Virus record (IMG/VR): IMGVR_UViG_3300018080_000129
Span: 1-64,000 of that record
Direction: 5' to 3' (one strand)
DNA length: 64,000 nucleotides
Source of the DNA: a virus
Position numbers and translations under genes: made by a program. Positions 2,800 to 22,171 of this stretch are shown piece after piece. The notes below the pieces were generated by a model. That model did not search any database and was not told where the DNA came from. It saw nothing but the letters and a program-made list of their open reading frames with translations. Within the stretch, counting starts at the first letter, position 1. The number at the start of each line of letters is the position of its first letter.

Positions 2800-3267
2800 C
2801 TATCTCAGTCCCTCCCGTTCCCTGAAAAGCAACAGGAACGCAAGTTCTTTTTGACCCTCTCTGCTATTCCAGTAATCTCCTCTCGCTTTCTCATTACGAT
2901 ACTCTGTGATTCTCAAACTCAGGTAACGACGCATCCGTGTCTCAGTTTCTTCCTGAGTCTCGTTTCTCTCTCCCCAAAGTTGCAACTGCCTTTCCGTATG
3001 GCCGAACTCGTCAATCTCCACATCGTTCATCTCAAGCCATAGTTTCTTGTATTTCTTTCCGTGTTGACGCTTAAGCTGCATCAACCTTTTCAGGATTGAC
3101 CCAAGCTCTATTTCCACATCGCTTCCACCAAGAAAATGAGCCAGCTTCTCTTGAACTTTTCTCGGCTTCGAAGACCATCTGGAAGTATCCTCAGCATCAT
3201 AGTGAGAATCCTTTCCTCTCACGTAGTCTTTGAAATCCTTTAGCTTCATCCTGTTTCTCTTCGGCAT
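2800..3267 (-). CDS. hypothetical protein
   Basis: ORF with GGAGG RBS. Confidence 0.6.
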   Translation of the reverse strand: MPKRNRMKLKDFKDYVRGKDSHYDAEDTSRWSSKPRKVQEKLAHFLGGSDVEIELGSILKRLMQLKRQHGKKYKKLWLEMNDVEIDEFGHTERQLQLWGERNETQEETETRMRRYLSLRITEYRNEKARGDYWNSREGQKELAFLLLFREREGLR

Positions 3268-3278
3268 CGGTCTTCCTC

Positions 3279-6906: not shown

Positions 6907-7243
6907 TTTTCTTTCTCCCTAAAAACTCTTCGATTGCGCTTCCATCACCCTTCATGCGCAGCCATTGATTCAAACTCGACCGAGACAGACTGGCGCGTTC
7001 AGCAAGCTCCTTCTTGCCATACAGAAGACTCAGAAAAAAGAACGCTTCTCCAATGACCACAAGCGATACAGCCCGCTTTCTCCTTTGTTTAGTCTGCGTC
7101 AGCACGATTGCCCAAAGAGCTTTCTCATTCTTCTTGGCAAAATCGACATACCAATCAACGGATTCCTTGATGATTCCGCAAAGCTCATCAAGCAATTCTT
7201 CTTCGGTCAGTTCCAACAATTGCTCTTCGGTCTTCTTATTCAT
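6896..7243 (-). CDS. hypothetical protein with possible C-terminal HTH
   Basis: KKELAERASLSRSSLNQW. Confidence 0.5.
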   Translation of the reverse strand: MNKKTEEQLLELTEEELLDELCGIIKESVDWYVDFAKKNEKALWAIVLTQTKQRRKRAVSLVVIGEAFFFLSLLYGKKELAERASLSRSSLNQWLRMKGDGSAIEEFLGRKKNGK

Positions 7244-7464
7244 CTCACACCCGCTTTTTTTGCCATGATTCTCAGCCTTTCGAAAGTGGTTTCTCATAAC
7301 ACGGACGGTTGAACCAAGGATGAATCAGCTTACCGTGTTTCGGCCCTTTGTTGGGTTCTTTCTCCATCCCAACAAACACCGCACCTTCAGGCAAATCAGT
7401 ATACCAAGGTTTACCGTTCAACACACACAAAGCATTGCCTGCCATGAGTCTTTGCCTTTCAAAA

Positions 7465-7540
7465 TGGTGGGAGCGGTGGGCTTTGCTCCCACGACCCTCC
7501 GGTTAAGAGCCGGACGCTCTACTAACTGAGCTACGCTCCC
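7465..7540 (-). tRNA. tRNA-Lys(CTT) with non-canonical D/T loops
   Basis: TCCGG-CTCTTAA-CCGGA; T-loop AGCAAAG; D-loop TTAGTA; CCA. Confidence 0.88.
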
Positions 7541-8088
7541 TCTTCCTTTTCTGCATAAGCTATCCATTCCTGCTTCGTTTCTTTCTTCAACTTACCCTCA
7601 CACTCGAAAACCTTACATCCGCGAAAGGCAGTATAACTCGTGTCTCCCACAGCAAACCTCTGCGTGTCCATCAAATAATGAGTAGCAGGATAATAAGAGG
7701 TCGAACCTCTGCCGCTCCAACCCGTATATCCTGAGATAGACAAAACGAAAAACCTTCCCTTTTGCGAAACCCAACGCACATTAAACGCGCCCCCAAAGTC
7801 AACACCCTTCTTGAACTTCGTCAGCAAGTCCGAAATATGAGAGGGAATACTATCCTTTTTGTTCTGCTTTCTATCCCGCTCGGCCCGAAGAATCGCATCC
7901 CTGACATCTCCTATCTTGTTCAGGATAGCGTTGGGCTTATATTTCTTATGAGCCGCTTTGAGAGCCTTATCCCGCATCTCTGTCGCTTTCACAAATGCAG
8001 GGTCATTGCTAACTGCGTTCATAGCATTATCATATTGTTTCTCCAACACTTTCAACTCAGCCTTCAATTCTTTGATTTCCTTAGCCAT
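7531..8088 (-). CDS. hypothetical protein
   Basis: 185-aa ORF; stop TAG inside tRNA-Lys. Confidence 0.7.
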   Translation of the reverse strand: MAKEIKELKAELKVLEKQYDNAMNAVSNDPAFVKATEMRDKALKAAHKKYKPNAILNKIGDVRDAILRAERDRKQNKKDSIPSHISDLLTKFKKGVDFGGAFNVRWVSQKGRFFVLSISGYTGWSGRGSTSYYPATHYLMDTQRFAVGDTSYTAFRGCKVFECEGKLKKETKQEWIAYAEKEEGA

Positions 8089-8333
8089 ACGCGCCCACTC
8101 CCTTCAATGTATGTCGCTTGCGATTCATTCGAGGATGTTGCTTACTCGGACGCTTCCTCTTGGTCTGCTCGTGAACCGTCTTGCCGACCCACTCAGGCGG
8201 GATTTGCACTATTCTTCCCCGCCTGACCCGGTAAAAGCCCTCGCCTATCTGAATCCGTTTCACGAGACACTTTCCTTTCCGGCTTTCTATACGGAACCCT
8301 CGGAAATTTTTGGCAGGTTTTCTGAAAAAGATT

Positions 8334-8410
8334 TGGTCGGGGTGGCCGGATTTGAACCGGCGTTCTCCACGTCCCGAACGTGGCGGGATACCAGACTTCC
8401 CCACACCCCG
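8334..8410 (-). tRNA. tRNA-Pro(CGG)
   Basis: CGGGGTG acceptor, loop TTCGGGA, CCA. Confidence 0.92.
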
Positions 8411-8413
8411 ATA

Positions 8414-8668
8414 TTACCATGCGTGACAAGGCTTTAGACAACTTCCGAGCTTCTCGCGCCTGATTCTGATGTCCTGTTTATCATACTTCTCCACAGCTTG
8501 CATCTGCCCTTCTGCCTTGACATAATCAGCCAGCATGTACTGCATCGGGCCAAGCTGCGCTCCGCATTCGCACTTCGGCCCAAGCCGATACCCTCTCGGC
8601 CTTCGAGCAATTACGTTGCTCGTGTAACACTTACTGCAAGTTGTGAGATATATCGCGTAGGTCTTCAT
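8414..8668 (-). CDS. zinc-ribbon hypothetical protein
   Basis: CSKC...CECG. Confidence 0.55.
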   Translation of the reverse strand: MKTYAIYLTTCSKCYTSNVIARRPRGYRLGPKCECGAQLGPMQYMLADYVKAEGQMQAVEKYDKQDIRIRREKLGSCLKPCHAW

Positions 8669-8674
8669 AATAGT

Positions 8675-8716
8675 TGGTGGGCACGGACGGACTCGAACCG
8701 TCAACATCCTCCTTGT
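8675..8716 (-). pseudogene. 3' half of an interrupted tRNA-Val(NAC)
   Basis: ACAA-GGAGG-ATGTT-GACGG-TTCGAGT-CCGTC-CGTGCCC-A-CCA with no attached 5' half. Confidence 0.85.
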
Positions 8717-8792
8717 TGGTAGGCGGTATCGGACTCGAACCGATGACCTCTTGAATGTAAGTCAAGCGTTCTCCCAACTGAACTAACCGCCT
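8717..8792 (-). tRNA. tRNA-Val(TAC)
   Basis: CTTGA-CTTACAT-TCAAG, CCA. Confidence 0.92.
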
Positions 8793-9472
8793 ACGTTTAG
8801 AGACTTTTCCCTCAGATATTCTATACCCCCGTATACTTTTTGGATGAGTTCCGTGTTATTTACCGTTAATCTCGCAGTGCCATTCGGTTGCTTTCCAACC
8901 CTTTTTAATTGACTTGCTCTGTTCACTTTGTAACGTGAAAACTTACGAAACATATCATCTCGAAGAAAAGGAAGCTTACTTTTCCAAAAACTCTGCATCT
9001 CCTCATTTGAAGCCTTCGTTGTATCATGGCAGGCTAAGTAAAACGTAATTTTTTCTCCGTAACCTTCCTTGACAAGCCATCCTCCTACCAATCTAAGCAT
9101 GTCCTCGTCACAATTTGTAATAGAGAAACTGTTCTTGTCCTTTGTTCCATCAGCCCAATACAAAGCACAAATAACTCGAAAAAATACGTCTTTCTTCGCT
9201 TTTTTCTTACCTTGTTTCCTATAACGCAAATGTCTTTCAGCCGCTCTCTCCTTCAAATGTTGAGCGTGATTCAAACTATGCTTGTAAAAGTTTTTTCTGT
9301 TGTTTACGAGTTTCTCGTTGAGTCTTTCAATTTGGCTTTGAGATAATGTTATATCTCTAACCCATAGGGATACAGAACTTTTTGCAACAGATAATTTTCT
9401 CGCTATCTCCCTAATACTAAGACCTTGTTGCGAACGAAGTTGACAAGCTTTTTCCTGTTCTTTTTTCTTCAT
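8783..9472 (-). CDS. HTH plus LAGLIDADG-like putative homing endonuclease
   Basis: GLSIREIARKLSVAKSSVSLW HTH; ALYWADG-x-K...FSITNCD LAGLIDADG-like motif. Confidence 0.7.
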   Translation of the reverse strand: MKKKEQEKACQLRSQQGLSIREIARKLSVAKSSVSLWVRDITLSQSQIERLNEKLVNNRKNFYKHSLNHAQHLKERAAERHLRYRKQGKKKAKKDVFFRVICALYWADGTKDKNSFSITNCDEDMLRLVGGWLVKEGYGEKITFYLACHDTTKASNEEMQSFWKSKLPFLRDDMFRKFSRYKVNRASQLKRVGKQPNGTARLTVNNTELIQKVYGGIEYLREKSLNVGG

Positions 9473-9518
9473 TTTCGACCCTCCTTCTTGTTGTTACAAG
9501 AGTTCTTATAGAAGGGTC

Positions 9519-9540
9519 AAAATATAAAAGAATTATCAAA
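9519..9540 (-). promoter_or_regulatory. repeated AT-rich promoter motif ATAATTCTTTTATATT
   Basis: Same motif precedes six genes in the structural region. Confidence 0.6.
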
Positions 9541-9543
9541 CTT

Positions 9544-9565
9544 CTTCCATTTGAGCTACGCGCCC
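9544..9565 (-). pseudogene. 5' part of the interrupted tRNA-Val
   Basis: GGGCGCG-TA-GCTC-AAATGGAAG; GGGCGCG pairs 7/7 (one G-U) with CGTGCCC of the 3' half. Confidence 0.8.
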
Positions 9566-9933
9566 GAATCATCTCTCCGTGGTCTGAAATAAACCATGCC
9601 TTCAACATCATCGGCTGGCTTGAAAAACCATGTGCCACCGTGGTCAATCACTGCCTGCCACAGAAGCAGACCAAAAAAGAAACCTGCCTCTTGTTCGCTC
9701 TGACCACAAGCGTAGTAGATTTGGTCGAGAGGAGGAGGCCAAGGAGTATGGATGCTGCCCAAGTAACTCGATACCAGAATGTCATTTGTGGCGTTGTCCA
9801 GCGTCTCCTTAAAGAAAGCCATAATCGCCAGATAATCCCACGCGGATAACGTCCTCATCCGCGTCTCGTAACTTGCCTGCCGCTTCTTCGGAATCGACAG
9901 AATTCGTTGCCCACTGAGAGAGAGAAGCATCAT
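9556..9933 (-). CDS. hypothetical protein
   Basis: ATGA-coupled start; stop inside the tRNA 5' fragment. Confidence 0.65.
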   Translation of the reverse strand: MMLLSLSGQRILSIPKKRQASYETRMRTLSAWDYLAIMAFFKETLDNATNDILVSSYLGSIHTPWPPPLDQIYYACGQSEQEAGFFFGLLLWQAVIDHGGTWFFKPADDVEGMVYFRPRRDDSGA

Positions 9934-10169
9934 TCGTCTCCTCTTGTCCAATCGCCCATGACTGCCTTGAAATCCTGCCCAACAGCCTCCCAATCGGCCT
10001 TCAGAGCTTCATAATCGGCTTCTGAAGGCTTCATATCCTCATATCGAGTCAAATCCCTATAAGAGGTTCCTCCAATGTCCAGGACGCTTCCAAAACCGTT
10101 CCAGAATGAAGGGAGCTTCTTGAGCATCCTGAAGGTTGGGCTGTTCTCGATGTTCCAGAATCCGTTCAT
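9930..10169 (-). CDS. hypothetical protein (DYEALKADWEAVGQD motif)
   Basis: ORF after tRNA-Glu. Confidence 0.6.
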   Translation of the reverse strand: MNGFWNIENSPTFRMLKKLPSFWNGFGSVLDIGGTSYRDLTRYEDMKPSEADYEALKADWEAVGQDFKAVMGDWTRGDE

Positions 10170-10182
10170 TGTTTCATCCTTA

Positions 10183-10258
10183 TGGTAGCCCCAAGGAGAC
10201 TCGAACTCCTATCTCCAGATTGAGGGTCTGGTATCCTCGCCAGTTAGACGATGAGGCC
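10183..10258 (-). tRNA. tRNA-Glu(CTC) with C33
   Basis: CCAGA-CCCTCAA-TCTGG, CCA. Confidence 0.85.
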
Positions 10259-10260
10259 AC

Positions 10261-10336
10261 TGGTGGGTGCGGTGGGCTTCGCTCCCACGACCTCCCGGTT
10301 AAAAGCCGGATGCTCTACTTGCTGAGCTACGCACCC
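10261..10336 (-). tRNA. tRNA-Lys(TTT) with non-canonical D/T loops
   Basis: TCCGG-CTTTTAA-CCGGG; T-loop AGCGAAG; D-loop CAAGTA; CCA. Confidence 0.88.
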
Positions 10337-10484
10337 TATTCGTAATCAAAACCAACTTTTTTTCCACGCCTGCTCTGATTTTTGTGCCTGTCTCTCGTGT
10401 TGCCTTTCCAGCGGTCTGGCGTACACAAGGTACAGCGCACTTGGCGTCTGCATTTCTTCCGCTTGAAGTTCGCCATGCTTTCTC

Positions 10485-10724
10485 CTAAGCTCTCTTGCAA
10501 ATCTCCTGCAATTCGGCTTCATCCATCTTCCTGCCGATGTGCCACTTCTCACAGAACGGACAAGGATAAGGCTCAAGCACTTTTGGAGCCACTTTCTTGT
10601 TCATGGCTTCCGCTGACTTGATAGCAGTTTCTTCCGTGTTATAACGAACCTTCTTACCACACGTATGGATTTCACCACAAACCCGTCCAGCAGTCAAGTG
10701 TAATTGCCGCAAACGGTCGTCCAT
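10485..10724 (-). CDS. small zinc-binding protein
   Basis: CGKKVRY...YPCPFCEKWH. Confidence 0.6.
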   Translation of the reverse strand: MDDRLRQLHLTAGRVCGEIHTCGKKVRYNTEETAIKSAEAMNKKVAPKVLEPYPCPFCEKWHIGRKMDEAELQEICKRA

Positions 10725-10741
10725 GTTCTGCTCCCTAAAAG

Positions 10742-10815
10742 CGGAGACGACGGGACTCGAACCCGCAACCCCCGAATCGACAGTCCGGTACTCTAACCAG
10801 TTGAGCTACGTCTCC
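10742..10815 (-). tRNA. tRNA-Asp(GTC), no encoded CCA
   Basis: CCGGA-CTGTCGA-TTCGG. Confidence 0.9.
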
Positions 10816-10817
10816 AG

Positions 10818-11051
10818 TTATCCTTTCTTCCGCTTCATCGGCGCACGAGCAACATCTCCCTCTTTGTCGATGAAGTAAAGAAATCCTTTCTCTCTTGTCA
10901 CGCCAGCCGTCTTGATTTTCTCAGGAGGGTCAACGGGCTGTGTGTTGCCTTTCCTGACCATCTTTGCGCGAGAAACATCCCCTTCCTTGTCGAGGAAGTA
11001 AAGAAATCCCTTTTCCTTCACAATACCCAATTCAGCAACTTTCTCGGACAT
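10818..11051 (-). CDS. small basic protein with internal duplication (CC1-like nucleic-acid-binding protein?)
   Basis: EKGFLYF(L/I)DKEGDVxRAxM occurs twice. Confidence 0.6.
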   Translation of the reverse strand: MSEKVAELGIVKEKGFLYFLDKEGDVSRAKMVRKGNTQPVDPPEKIKTAGVTREKGFLYFIDKEGDVARAPMKRKKG

Positions 11052-11061
11052 GTTTGGTCTC

Positions 11062-11307
11062 CTAATCAAGTTTGACTAAATCTGCCTCGATTTTCAATGA
11101 ACGGTAAACTTCACCTGTGTACTCCGTGTCATTCCAGTCAGCCAGCACACCATATACTGTGAACTTCTTTTTCTGACCCGTATCCTCAAGATACTTCTCC
11201 GCAGCATCCCGACTGTACCAGACAGCACCACCAATGGCTTTTCGAGGCTTTTCCTGCTCCTCGAAATAGCGTTCATACAGGGCTGTCTTTCCTACCGTGT
11301 ATAACAT
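11062..11307 (-). CDS. hypothetical protein
   Basis: ORF directly after tRNA-His. Confidence 0.6.
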   Translation of the reverse strand: MLYTVGKTALYERYFEEQEKPRKAIGGAVWYSRDAAEKYLEDTGQKKKFTVYGVLADWNDTEYTGEVYRSLKIEADLVKLD

Positions 11308-11317
11308 GGTTCAAAAA

Positions 11318-11395
11318 TGGGCCGTCTGGCCGGATTCGAACCGGCACTTACCTGAGTCACAGTCAGGTGCCTTCACCACTTTGGCTACAGACGGC
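11318..11395 (-). tRNA. tRNA-His(GTG)
   Basis: G-1:C73, CCTGA-CTGTGAC-TCAGG, CCA. Confidence 0.92.
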
Positions 11396-11401
11396 ATAAA
11401 A

Positions 11402-11490
11402 CGGGAGGAGTGGGATTCGAACCCACGGGAGACCGAAAGGCCTCCAACGGCTTAGCAAGCCGTCGCATTCAACCGCTCTGCCATCCCCCC
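11402..11490 (-). tRNA. tRNA-Ser(GCT), no encoded CCA
   Basis: Long variable arm, loop TTGCTAA. Confidence 0.9.
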
Positions 11491-11517
11491 TCTTCTTTAC
11501 GGAAAATGCGGCGATTT

Positions 11518-22033: not shown

Positions 22034-22171
22034 TCCAGTACCGAAAATCGCAGAGAGGACTGTAACGTCGCTCTACCACTAAGCTACCGCCCATCAAAGT
22101 TGGGCGGGTTGGAATCGAACCAACGTCTACGGCTCCCAAAGCGAAGTATCTCTCCACTGGAGCGTACTGGA
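22034..22171 (-). ncRNA. YrlA-like Y RNA (circularly permuted tRNA-mimic module)
   Basis: Closing stem TCCAGTAC/GTACTGGA; internal order is T arm (GTTGG-TTCGATT-CCAAC), loop-closed acceptor stem (CCGCCCA-ACTTTGA-TGGGCGG), D arm (GCTT-AGTGGTA-GAGC). Confidence 0.82.

Follow-up and report, generated by a model that had tools for sequence, protein, structure and literature searches.

How does a complete tRNA-Val gene come to lie between the two broken ends of another tRNA-Val gene, in the middle of a phage tRNA array? The question is raised by the IMG/VR virus record IMGVR_UViG_3300018080_000129, a 103.5-kb sequence with an estimated completeness of ~31%, the first 64 kb of which form the window analysed here. 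ARAGORN finds 29 tRNA genes in the window, every one on the minus strand and inside the first 23 kb. Within this array, a cassette of ~0.83 kb (8717-9543) consists of a leader, a free-standing open reading frame (ORF) encoding a helix-turn-helix (HTH) and a LAGLIDADG domain, and a complete tRNA-Val(TAC). We consider it likely that this is a mobile homing cassette, which entered the anticodon region of the phage's own tRNA-Val gene and carried a spare tRNA-Val(TAC) with it.

The remains of the resident gene are found on both sides of the cassette, on the minus strand like all features of the window described below. The 5' stump (9544-9565) comprises the acceptor 5' strand, U8 and A9, the D-stem 5' strand, the D loop and G22, and reads GGGCGCG-TA-GCTC-AAATGGAA-G from 9565 to 9544. 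Its length is 22-23 nucleotides (nt), with A23 at 9543 possibly belonging to it. The 3' stump (8675-8716, 42 nt) begins immediately after the CCA of the carried tRNA, with a spacer of 0 nt, and extends from anticodon position 35 to its own CCA end. It is composed of bases 35-36 (AC), loop bases 37-38 (AA), the anticodon-stem 3' strand GGAGG, the variable loop ATGTT, the T arm GACGG-TTCGAGT-CCGTC, the acceptor strand CGTGCCC (8679-8685), the discriminator A and CCA. Acceptor-strand pairing between the stumps extends over 7/7 positions, with one G-U pair, and the chance of such pairing alone is ~0.001. As the anticodon of the 3' stump ends in AC, the resident tRNA can only have been a tRNA-Val. 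Between the stumps positions 24-34 (11 nt) are absent. A split tRNA, reconstituted from the two stumps, was also considered and was rejected because the missing nucleotides include the anticodon-stem 5' strand. The 3' stump was recovered at an E-value of 3e-4 by an nhmmer tRNA profile built for this analysis; Infernal did not report it as a tRNA at E up to 5. Apart from its T arm, the window has a single orphan T arm that is perfect. An earlier note on this DNA, made from the letters alone, had described a 5' tRNA fragment at 9544-9565, an orphan 3' half directly after the carried tRNA, complementary acceptor strands, a break within the anticodon (N/AC) and a loss of roughly 10 nt, all of which agrees with the present parse.

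Both stumps resemble the surrounding phage DNA. With 59% and 60%, the GC contents of the 5' and 3' stumps are typical of the phage's own tRNA array. The upstream resident phage ORF (9556-9822; GC 50%, GC at third codon positions (GC3) 53%) has its TAG stop at U8-A9-G10 of the 5' stump, and other ORFs of the array likewise end within the next tRNA, hence the 5' stump lies in its original gene context. Downstream, the CCA of the 3' stump is followed after 6 nt by the start of another resident phage ORF (8414-8668; GC 51%, GC3 59%). A native origin of the 5' stump is also in line with its first 14 nt (9552-9565), which are identical to those of the resident tRNA-Ile(GAT) at 478-553.

The segment between the stumps has a different composition. 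Its leader (9473-9543) is 71 nt long, AT-rich with 31% GC, and ends in a GGAGG ribosome-binding site followed by GTCGAAA, directly before the ATG of the ORF (8783-9472, 229 amino acids). The ORF has a GC content of 38% and a GC3 of 36%, compared to 45-51% and 51-59%, respectively, in the five neighbouring ORFs. Its end overlaps the first 10 nt of the carried tRNA-Val(TAC) (8717-8792), the TAG stop of the ORF being U8-A9-G10 of the tRNA. The carried tRNA scores 70.8 bits in Rfam, has the second lowest GC content (51%) among the 29 tRNAs of the window and is the sole tRNA-Val in the 103.5-kb record. The anticodon stems of the carried and the resident gene, CTTGA/TCAAG and CCTCC (inferred)/GGAGG, respectively, have none of their five pairs in common. 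By composition, the cassette is foreign to the phage and the stumps look native. In the earlier note the insert had been credited with a complete, divergent tRNA-Val(TAC), which ARAGORN and Rfam both recover, and with a promoter motif ahead of the ORF, which is not confirmed: a scan of the leader on the cassette strand for the sigma-70 consensus finds no promoter.

What does the ORF encode? The protein is made up of an HTH (residues 1-42; 9347-9472), a long linker helix (residues 45-94) and a C-terminal domain (residues ~90-229; 8786-9205). Pfam, PHROGs and NCBIfam return HTH-type matches only, all of them N-terminal, and no GIY-YIG catalytic domain is among these matches. A search of 5.8 billion proteins yielded 90 relatives, and a family profile built from 31 of them matches the second LAGLIDADG motif of I-DmoI at E 5e-4, with the family consensus LYwaEGsK aligned over GLYVAEGDK of I-DmoI. 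The corresponding motif of the window protein is LYWADGTK, with D108 (9149-9151) as the acidic residue, followed by G109. Across the 31 aligned members the acidic position is retained in at least 90%, while G109 is invariant. The AlphaFold2 model (mean predicted local distance difference test (pLDDT) 92.8) shows the HTH, one 50-residue helix and an alpha/beta domain. In an exhaustive comparison of the model with 48,161 chains (VIA-align), the top 10 structural rows are LAGLIDADG enzymes or the LAGLIDADG-derived WhiA, aligned over residues ~90-229. The LAGLIDADG matches, at Z 5-6.6, comprise the TliVMA intein endonuclease domain, I-DmoI, E-DreI, I-Tsp061I, I-Vdi141I and I-MsoI; examples are 7qsu (Z 6.6, root-mean-square deviation (rmsd) 3.6, 91 aligned residues) and 2vs8 (Z 6.0, rmsd 2.7, 79 aligned residues). 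Judged by the I-DmoI motif match and the modelled alpha-beta-beta-alpha-beta-beta-alpha fold, the C-terminal domain is of the LAGLIDADG type, in agreement with the earlier note, which had called the ORF HTH-LAGLIDADG-like and had named a structure prediction of 8783-9472 as a check.

LAGLIDADG enzymes that have a single motif work as homodimers packed by way of the motif helices; for the present domain, self-pairing is a prediction. For two copies of residues 88-229 a homodimer score of 0.74 was obtained, against 0.00 for the best control, a value which may reflect likeness to solved LAGLIDADG dimers. Among proteins with solved structures, 20 of 30 same-chain pairs score this high, as does 1 of 23 single chains. 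Three runs share at least 92% of the contacts, with a partner pLDDT of 86, and the predicted interface is located on helix 96-108, the contacts being centred on residues 100-108 of both copies.

The fold comparison leaves room for a second reading, in which the stumps are recombination or duplication debris of the tRNA array and the ORF is a harmless passenger or a WhiA-like HTH regulator. WhiA, a LAGLIDADG-derived transcription factor, is among the fold matches (Z 5.6), Pfam sees the HTH only, and phage tRNA arrays are prone to rearrangement. However, WhiA is not known to keep the acidic residue of the LAGLIDADG motif, which over 90% of the members of this family retain, and the stumps bracket exactly the compositionally foreign segment. 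The remaining evidence on this reading comes from the homologues of the ORF.

To place the locus in a wider context, we analysed 165 homologue loci, 5 of them viral, 80 metagenomic and 80 from GTDB genomes, the last from Gaiellaceae and other Actinomycetota, from Anaerolineae and from many lineages of the Candidate Phyla Radiation (CPR). The earlier note had proposed a survey of whether homologues always lie next to a tRNA and a broken tRNA of the same amino acid. The first part holds almost throughout: a tRNA is found within 200 nt of the ORF in 149/165 loci, and 12 more ORFs adjoin a tRNA that ARAGORN missed because it bears an intron, giving a total of 161/165. The other four loci are truncated contigs or have an orphan T arm. 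The partner differs between clades. In a 75-member clade it is a tRNA-Gly(TCC) located 30-40 nt upstream of the ORF; in Anaerolineae it is a downstream tRNA-Val(TAC), in one CPR clade a divergent tRNA-Val(TAC), in another CPR clade a tRNA-Asn(GTT) 26-29 nt downstream, and further clades have Met or Glu partners. On a FastTree tree the partner-tRNA labels need 26 changes, compared with 74 when shuffled; the ORF clades follow the identity of the partner tRNA. The window ORF falls into a clade supported at 100 together with loci L008 and L002, both with tRNA-Val(TAC). One Anaerolineae genome contains three paralogues, and the two that were checked adjoin different tRNAs (Val and Met). In loci L003 and L004, ARAGORN also misses a tRNA-Glu(TTC) at ~3200-3270, which is complete, has a long, atypical D region and lies ~55 nt past the ORF. 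Furthermore, five loci (L065, L075, L076, L105 and L124) have tRNA 5' and 3' parts ~290 nt apart on the minus strand, convergent with the ORF and 50-370 nt after it; these may represent an interrupted tRNA, for which Rfam gives no intron match at the gathering score.

As regards the broken tRNA, stumps are present in seven or eight further phage-like loci, two pairs of which are near-identical; most bacterial loci are without them. The further stumps mostly end in or at the anticodon loop, one of them in the D arm, and they usually match the adjacent complete tRNA. The closest counterpart of the window is L008, whose protein is 47% identical. Here, a 5' stump is located ~60 nt ahead of the ORF, whose last 15 nt overlap a complete tRNA-Val(TAC); a 3' stump, consisting of the T arm, acceptor strand and CCA, follows directly after the CCA of the carried tRNA, as in the window. 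The acceptor strands of the L008 stumps, GGGGAAA/TTTCCCT, are unlike those of the window, yet are 7/7 paired; the stumps are thus not a conserved part of the element. A reading of the 5' stump as a conserved piece of the cassette's control region is rejected for the same reason, and also because the window's stump has resident-like GC and overlaps the upstream resident ORF.

In L013 the order is the 5' half of an old tRNA-Gly(TCC) up to position 37, a complete tRNA-Gly(TCC), the ORF, ~310 nt, and the old 3' half from position 33. The acceptor strands of the halves are 7/7 paired, and TTCC(A) of the anticodon loop is present on both sides, a duplication of 4-5 nt. LAGLIDADG enzymes typically cut leaving 4-nt overhangs, and a duplication centred on the loop is the remnant that would be expected of such a staggered cut. 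In L059 and L061 the stump of an old tRNA-Val(TAC) ends at position 37, just past the anticodon, and is followed by a complete tRNA-Val(TAC) and the ORF. The stumps of L014 and L004 end at about positions 38 and 31, respectively. In L040 a 27-nt tRNA-Glu(CTC) stump is followed by a tRNA-Glu(TTC), the ORF and a complete tRNA-Glu(CTC), and two more stumps are stacked upstream. The three 5' stumps at 51-312 of this locus (from a tRNA with a GT anticodon, an unidentified tRNA and tRNA-Glu(CTC)) each lie 0-1 nt from the next tRNA and look like a record of repeated insertions. No 3' partners of the 5' stumps were found in L004, L014, L040 and L059; a 7-mer match in L014 was rejected as chance.

The stacked stumps of L040 also speak for array debris. 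On the other hand, most stumps break in or at the anticodon loop at several independent loci and usually match the complete tRNA of the cassette, and the distribution of the family is patchy and includes frameshifted copies, unlike that of a housekeeping regulator. Among 81 genomes of one actinobacterial family, ~8 have intact copies, ~5 have copies that are frameshifted, split or internally deleted, and the remainder have none. A filled locus (L169) and an empty one (L183) have the tRNA-Gly and the gene downstream in common; the former has an additional ~710 nt of leader plus ORF right after the tRNA. At the level of the family, the patchy, partly decayed distribution together with the empty and filled site is the pattern expected of a selfish homing gene and not of a housekeeping regulator. 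Taking both sides together, we regard debris with a passenger or regulator ORF as unlikely.

A further possibility is that the window holds a decayed, ORF-bearing group I intron of the tRNA-Val anticodon loop, with tRNA function rescued by a separately acquired tRNA-Val. The 3' break of the window lies within the anticodon, and group I introns do occur beside homologues: ORF-less introns occupy the anticodon loop of the ORF-adjacent tRNA in the CPR loci L141, L156 and L161, where the partner is tRNA-Asn(GTT), and in the Chloroflexota loci L077 and L107, where it is a tRNA with a CAT anticodon. In L161 (1895-2200) the intron is inserted between positions 35 and 36. The introns of the family thus occupy the same place, the anticodon loop, where the stumps break. 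Where these introns occur, however, the homologue ORF is located outside the intron, 24-29 nt upstream of the tRNA. In the window itself no group I intron was matched within 7000-11500 at E up to 5 in Rfam, in keeping with the earlier note, which had recognised no intron core; the same search detects the introns of the five loci at 60-104 bits. Moreover, a complete tRNA would have to lie within the supposed intron, overlapping the end of the ORF, and as 11 exon bases are absent, no splice could restore the tRNA. An intron remnant therefore appears distinctly improbable.

That the carried tRNA may be a resistant allele has indirect support: in addition to the five changed stem pairs of the window, there is a comparison of tRNA-Gly(TCC) genes with and without the ORF. 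Twenty-five unique ORF-free tRNA-Gly(TCC) genes of one family, chosen by similarity to one query, have only CCAGC or CTAGC stems and one loop, whereas 37 ORF-linked tRNA-Gly(TCC) genes with the same acceptor stem, drawn from wider taxa, have 25 different anticodon stems. In the ORF-linked set the anticodon stems are more variable than the T stems, while in the ORF-free set the T stem is more variable. At least 10 stems occur among the 13 ORF-linked genes with Gaiellaceae in the title, which also vary in the loop (several variants) and in the D arm (two types). Three unpublished genomes (G017, G024 and G035) contribute one decayed copy of the ORF (G024) and one of 28 ORF-free tRNAs, with no locus in G035, and no conclusion depends on them.

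The leaders of the family are enriched in two hexamers. With tRNAs masked, GTTCGA is seen 41 times against 2.8 expected and CGAACC 36 times against 2.6, a ~14-fold excess. CGTCCGA takes the place of these hexamers in the leaders of the Gly clade. The palindrome CGAACATATGTTCG is found at the start codon of actinobacterial members, and in CPR members GGTTCG lies between the -35 and -10 boxes. The leader hexamer is the T-loop box of tRNAs. By their resemblance to operators, the boxes may be bound by the HTH for autoregulation, and they may also be a docking site.

On these grounds the following course of events can be proposed, in which the repair route, the cut and its position, and the escape of the carried tRNA from cleavage are inferred. 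The anticodon arm is palindromic and so would be a natural target for a homodimer; a homodimeric enzyme would act on the dyad-symmetric DNA of the anticodon stem-loop of a susceptible tRNA-Val gene and cut both strands of the loop in a staggered manner. Repair would then copy the cassette from a donor, with no homology at the junctions and with the loss of ~11 nt on the 5' side. The carried tRNA-Val, with its different anticodon stem, would keep valine decoding and is presumed not to be cut, so that the insertion would be costless to the phage. In its core this is what the earlier note had proposed, namely a free-standing LAGLIDADG-type element that sits within the resident tRNA-Val and brings its own tRNA-Val(TAC) with no intron, and the motif and fold, the foreign composition, the sole tRNA-Val and the family survey all speak for it.

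Several points weigh against insertion of a homing cassette as set out here. As most bacterial loci are without stumps, insertion beside a tRNA, and not into it, is the common state of the family. Both junctions of the window are without homology; by eye, no convincing junction microhomology was seen in the window or in L008. The right junction lies exactly at the CCA end of the carried tRNA (8716/8717 in the window, 3225/3226 in L008), and simple double-strand-break repair would not predict junctions at mature tRNA ends. The presumed resistance of the carried tRNA is read from its sequence difference, and the two tRNA-Gly(TCC) sets were sampled unequally. The Z scores of 5-6.6 are modest for a fold assignment, and Foldseek against the PDB gives the alpha/beta domain no more than weak, unrelated matches. 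Finally, no close relative of this phage was found and therewith no empty site: blastn against 50,697 phage records gives single tRNA matches only, IMG/VR offers no useful relatives of either flanking ORF, and exact scans for the two stumps return nothing or unrelated tRNA-Arg. As a separate observation on junctions, several left junctions of L040 also coincide with tRNA 5' ends.

Insertion into a tRNA gene at the anticodon would also be expected of a small integrative element placed there by a site-specific recombinase. Elements with a tyrosine integrase frequently insert into tRNA genes, the anticodon loop being among the sites used, and a displaced piece of the tRNA stays behind. The 0.83-kb insert, however, encodes no integrase or other recombinase, its junctions show no identical att-type direct repeats, 11 nt are missing, and neither displaced part is a copy of the carried tRNA. 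Such an element is highly improbable as the source of this locus.

How does the homing cassette compare with known systems? Homing endonucleases are thought to spare their hosts by residing in introns, inteins or intergenic sites. The window would represent a third route, taken at a tRNA gene, in which the target is broken and a working spare is supplied. An intron-encoded homing endonuclease that targets the anticodon region of a tRNA gene shares the target, but is intron-encoded and has no spare tRNA, unlike the window; it is of the PD-(D/E)XK type and is not known to have a LAGLIDADG fold.

The nearest phage precedent is SegB of T4/T6, a free-standing GIY-YIG homing endonuclease within a phage tRNA cluster, which recognises a conserved 11-bp motif of the T-psi-C stem-loop and spreads with the neighbouring tRNA genes, and whose homologues are statistically tied to tRNAs across phages (PMC2330249, PMC13096335). 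Like SegB, the window ORF is a free-standing, putative endonuclease gene within a phage tRNA array, and the leader hexamer of its family is the T-loop box, which SegB recognises (PMC2330249). Unlike SegB, the window family combines an HTH with LAGLIDADG, its breaks lie mostly in or at the anticodon loop, and the window cassette is located within the broken target gene and supplies a replacement with the same anticodon; moreover, members of the family are frequent in chromosomes of bacteria (Actinomycetota, Chloroflexota, CPR).

In design, the nearest known system is that of the mORFs of fungal mitochondria, which make gene hybrids in atp6 of Allomyces macrogynus and in atp6, atp9, cox2 and nad3 of Glomus (PMC3630166, citing Paquin et al. 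1994). In both cases an endonuclease ORF is inserted without an intron, a foreign replacement is brought in and the native part is orphaned, downstream of the insert in the case of the mORFs; this is a likeness of design and not of descent. As with mORFs, the complete carried tRNA-Val is foreign in composition and native-like stumps lie on both sides. The targets of mORFs, however, are protein-coding and have their C-terminal part replaced in frame, whereas in the window a tRNA gene is affected, the replacement is an entire tRNA, and orphaned native parts remain at both ends. In collaborative (trans) homing, a free-standing endonuclease lies beside an ORF-less group I intron that interrupts its target (reviewed in PMC3984707). 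The CPR and Chloroflexota members that adjoin a tRNA with an ORF-less group I intron resemble this arrangement, as does the logic of protecting one's own target; the window has no intron, and any protection would come from destroying the old gene and carrying a variant. No account of a tRNA gene being replaced by a LAGLIDADG cassette turned up in the literature searched. What the present case contributes is a phage host, an HTH-fused family and population evidence from bacteria.

A broader reading can be entertained, though we hold it short of likely: the family may be a general gene drive that acts on the tRNA genes of phages and of bacteria of the Actinomycetota, Chloroflexota and CPR. The palindromic anticodon arm of one isoacceptor would serve each clade as its target; by spreading with a resistant allele, the clade would force turnover and rapid compensatory change of anticodon stems. 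Among tRNA-Gly genes, 25 stem variants are seen in 37 ORF-linked sequences and 2 in 25 ORF-free ones. Self-protection would take three interchangeable forms: a variant of the carried tRNA, an intron lacking an ORF in the loop, or loss of the old target made good by a spare gene. The GTTCGA boxes of the leader, being identical to the T-loop box, may mean that the HTH docks on tRNA genes and also represses its own gene. If true, homing with a spare tRNA would explain the orphan tRNA halves and duplicated isoacceptors in phage tRNA arrays, would provide a route for the movement of tRNA genes between phages and bacteria, and would impose selection on anticodon-stem sequence unrelated to translation. 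The family would also amount to a natural collection of LAGLIDADG enzymes that build on related scaffolds but differ in their short palindromic targets, a resource for work on specificity.

Elsewhere in the window, the second orphan perfect T arm is located at 22108-22124 on the minus strand, outside the called tRNAs.

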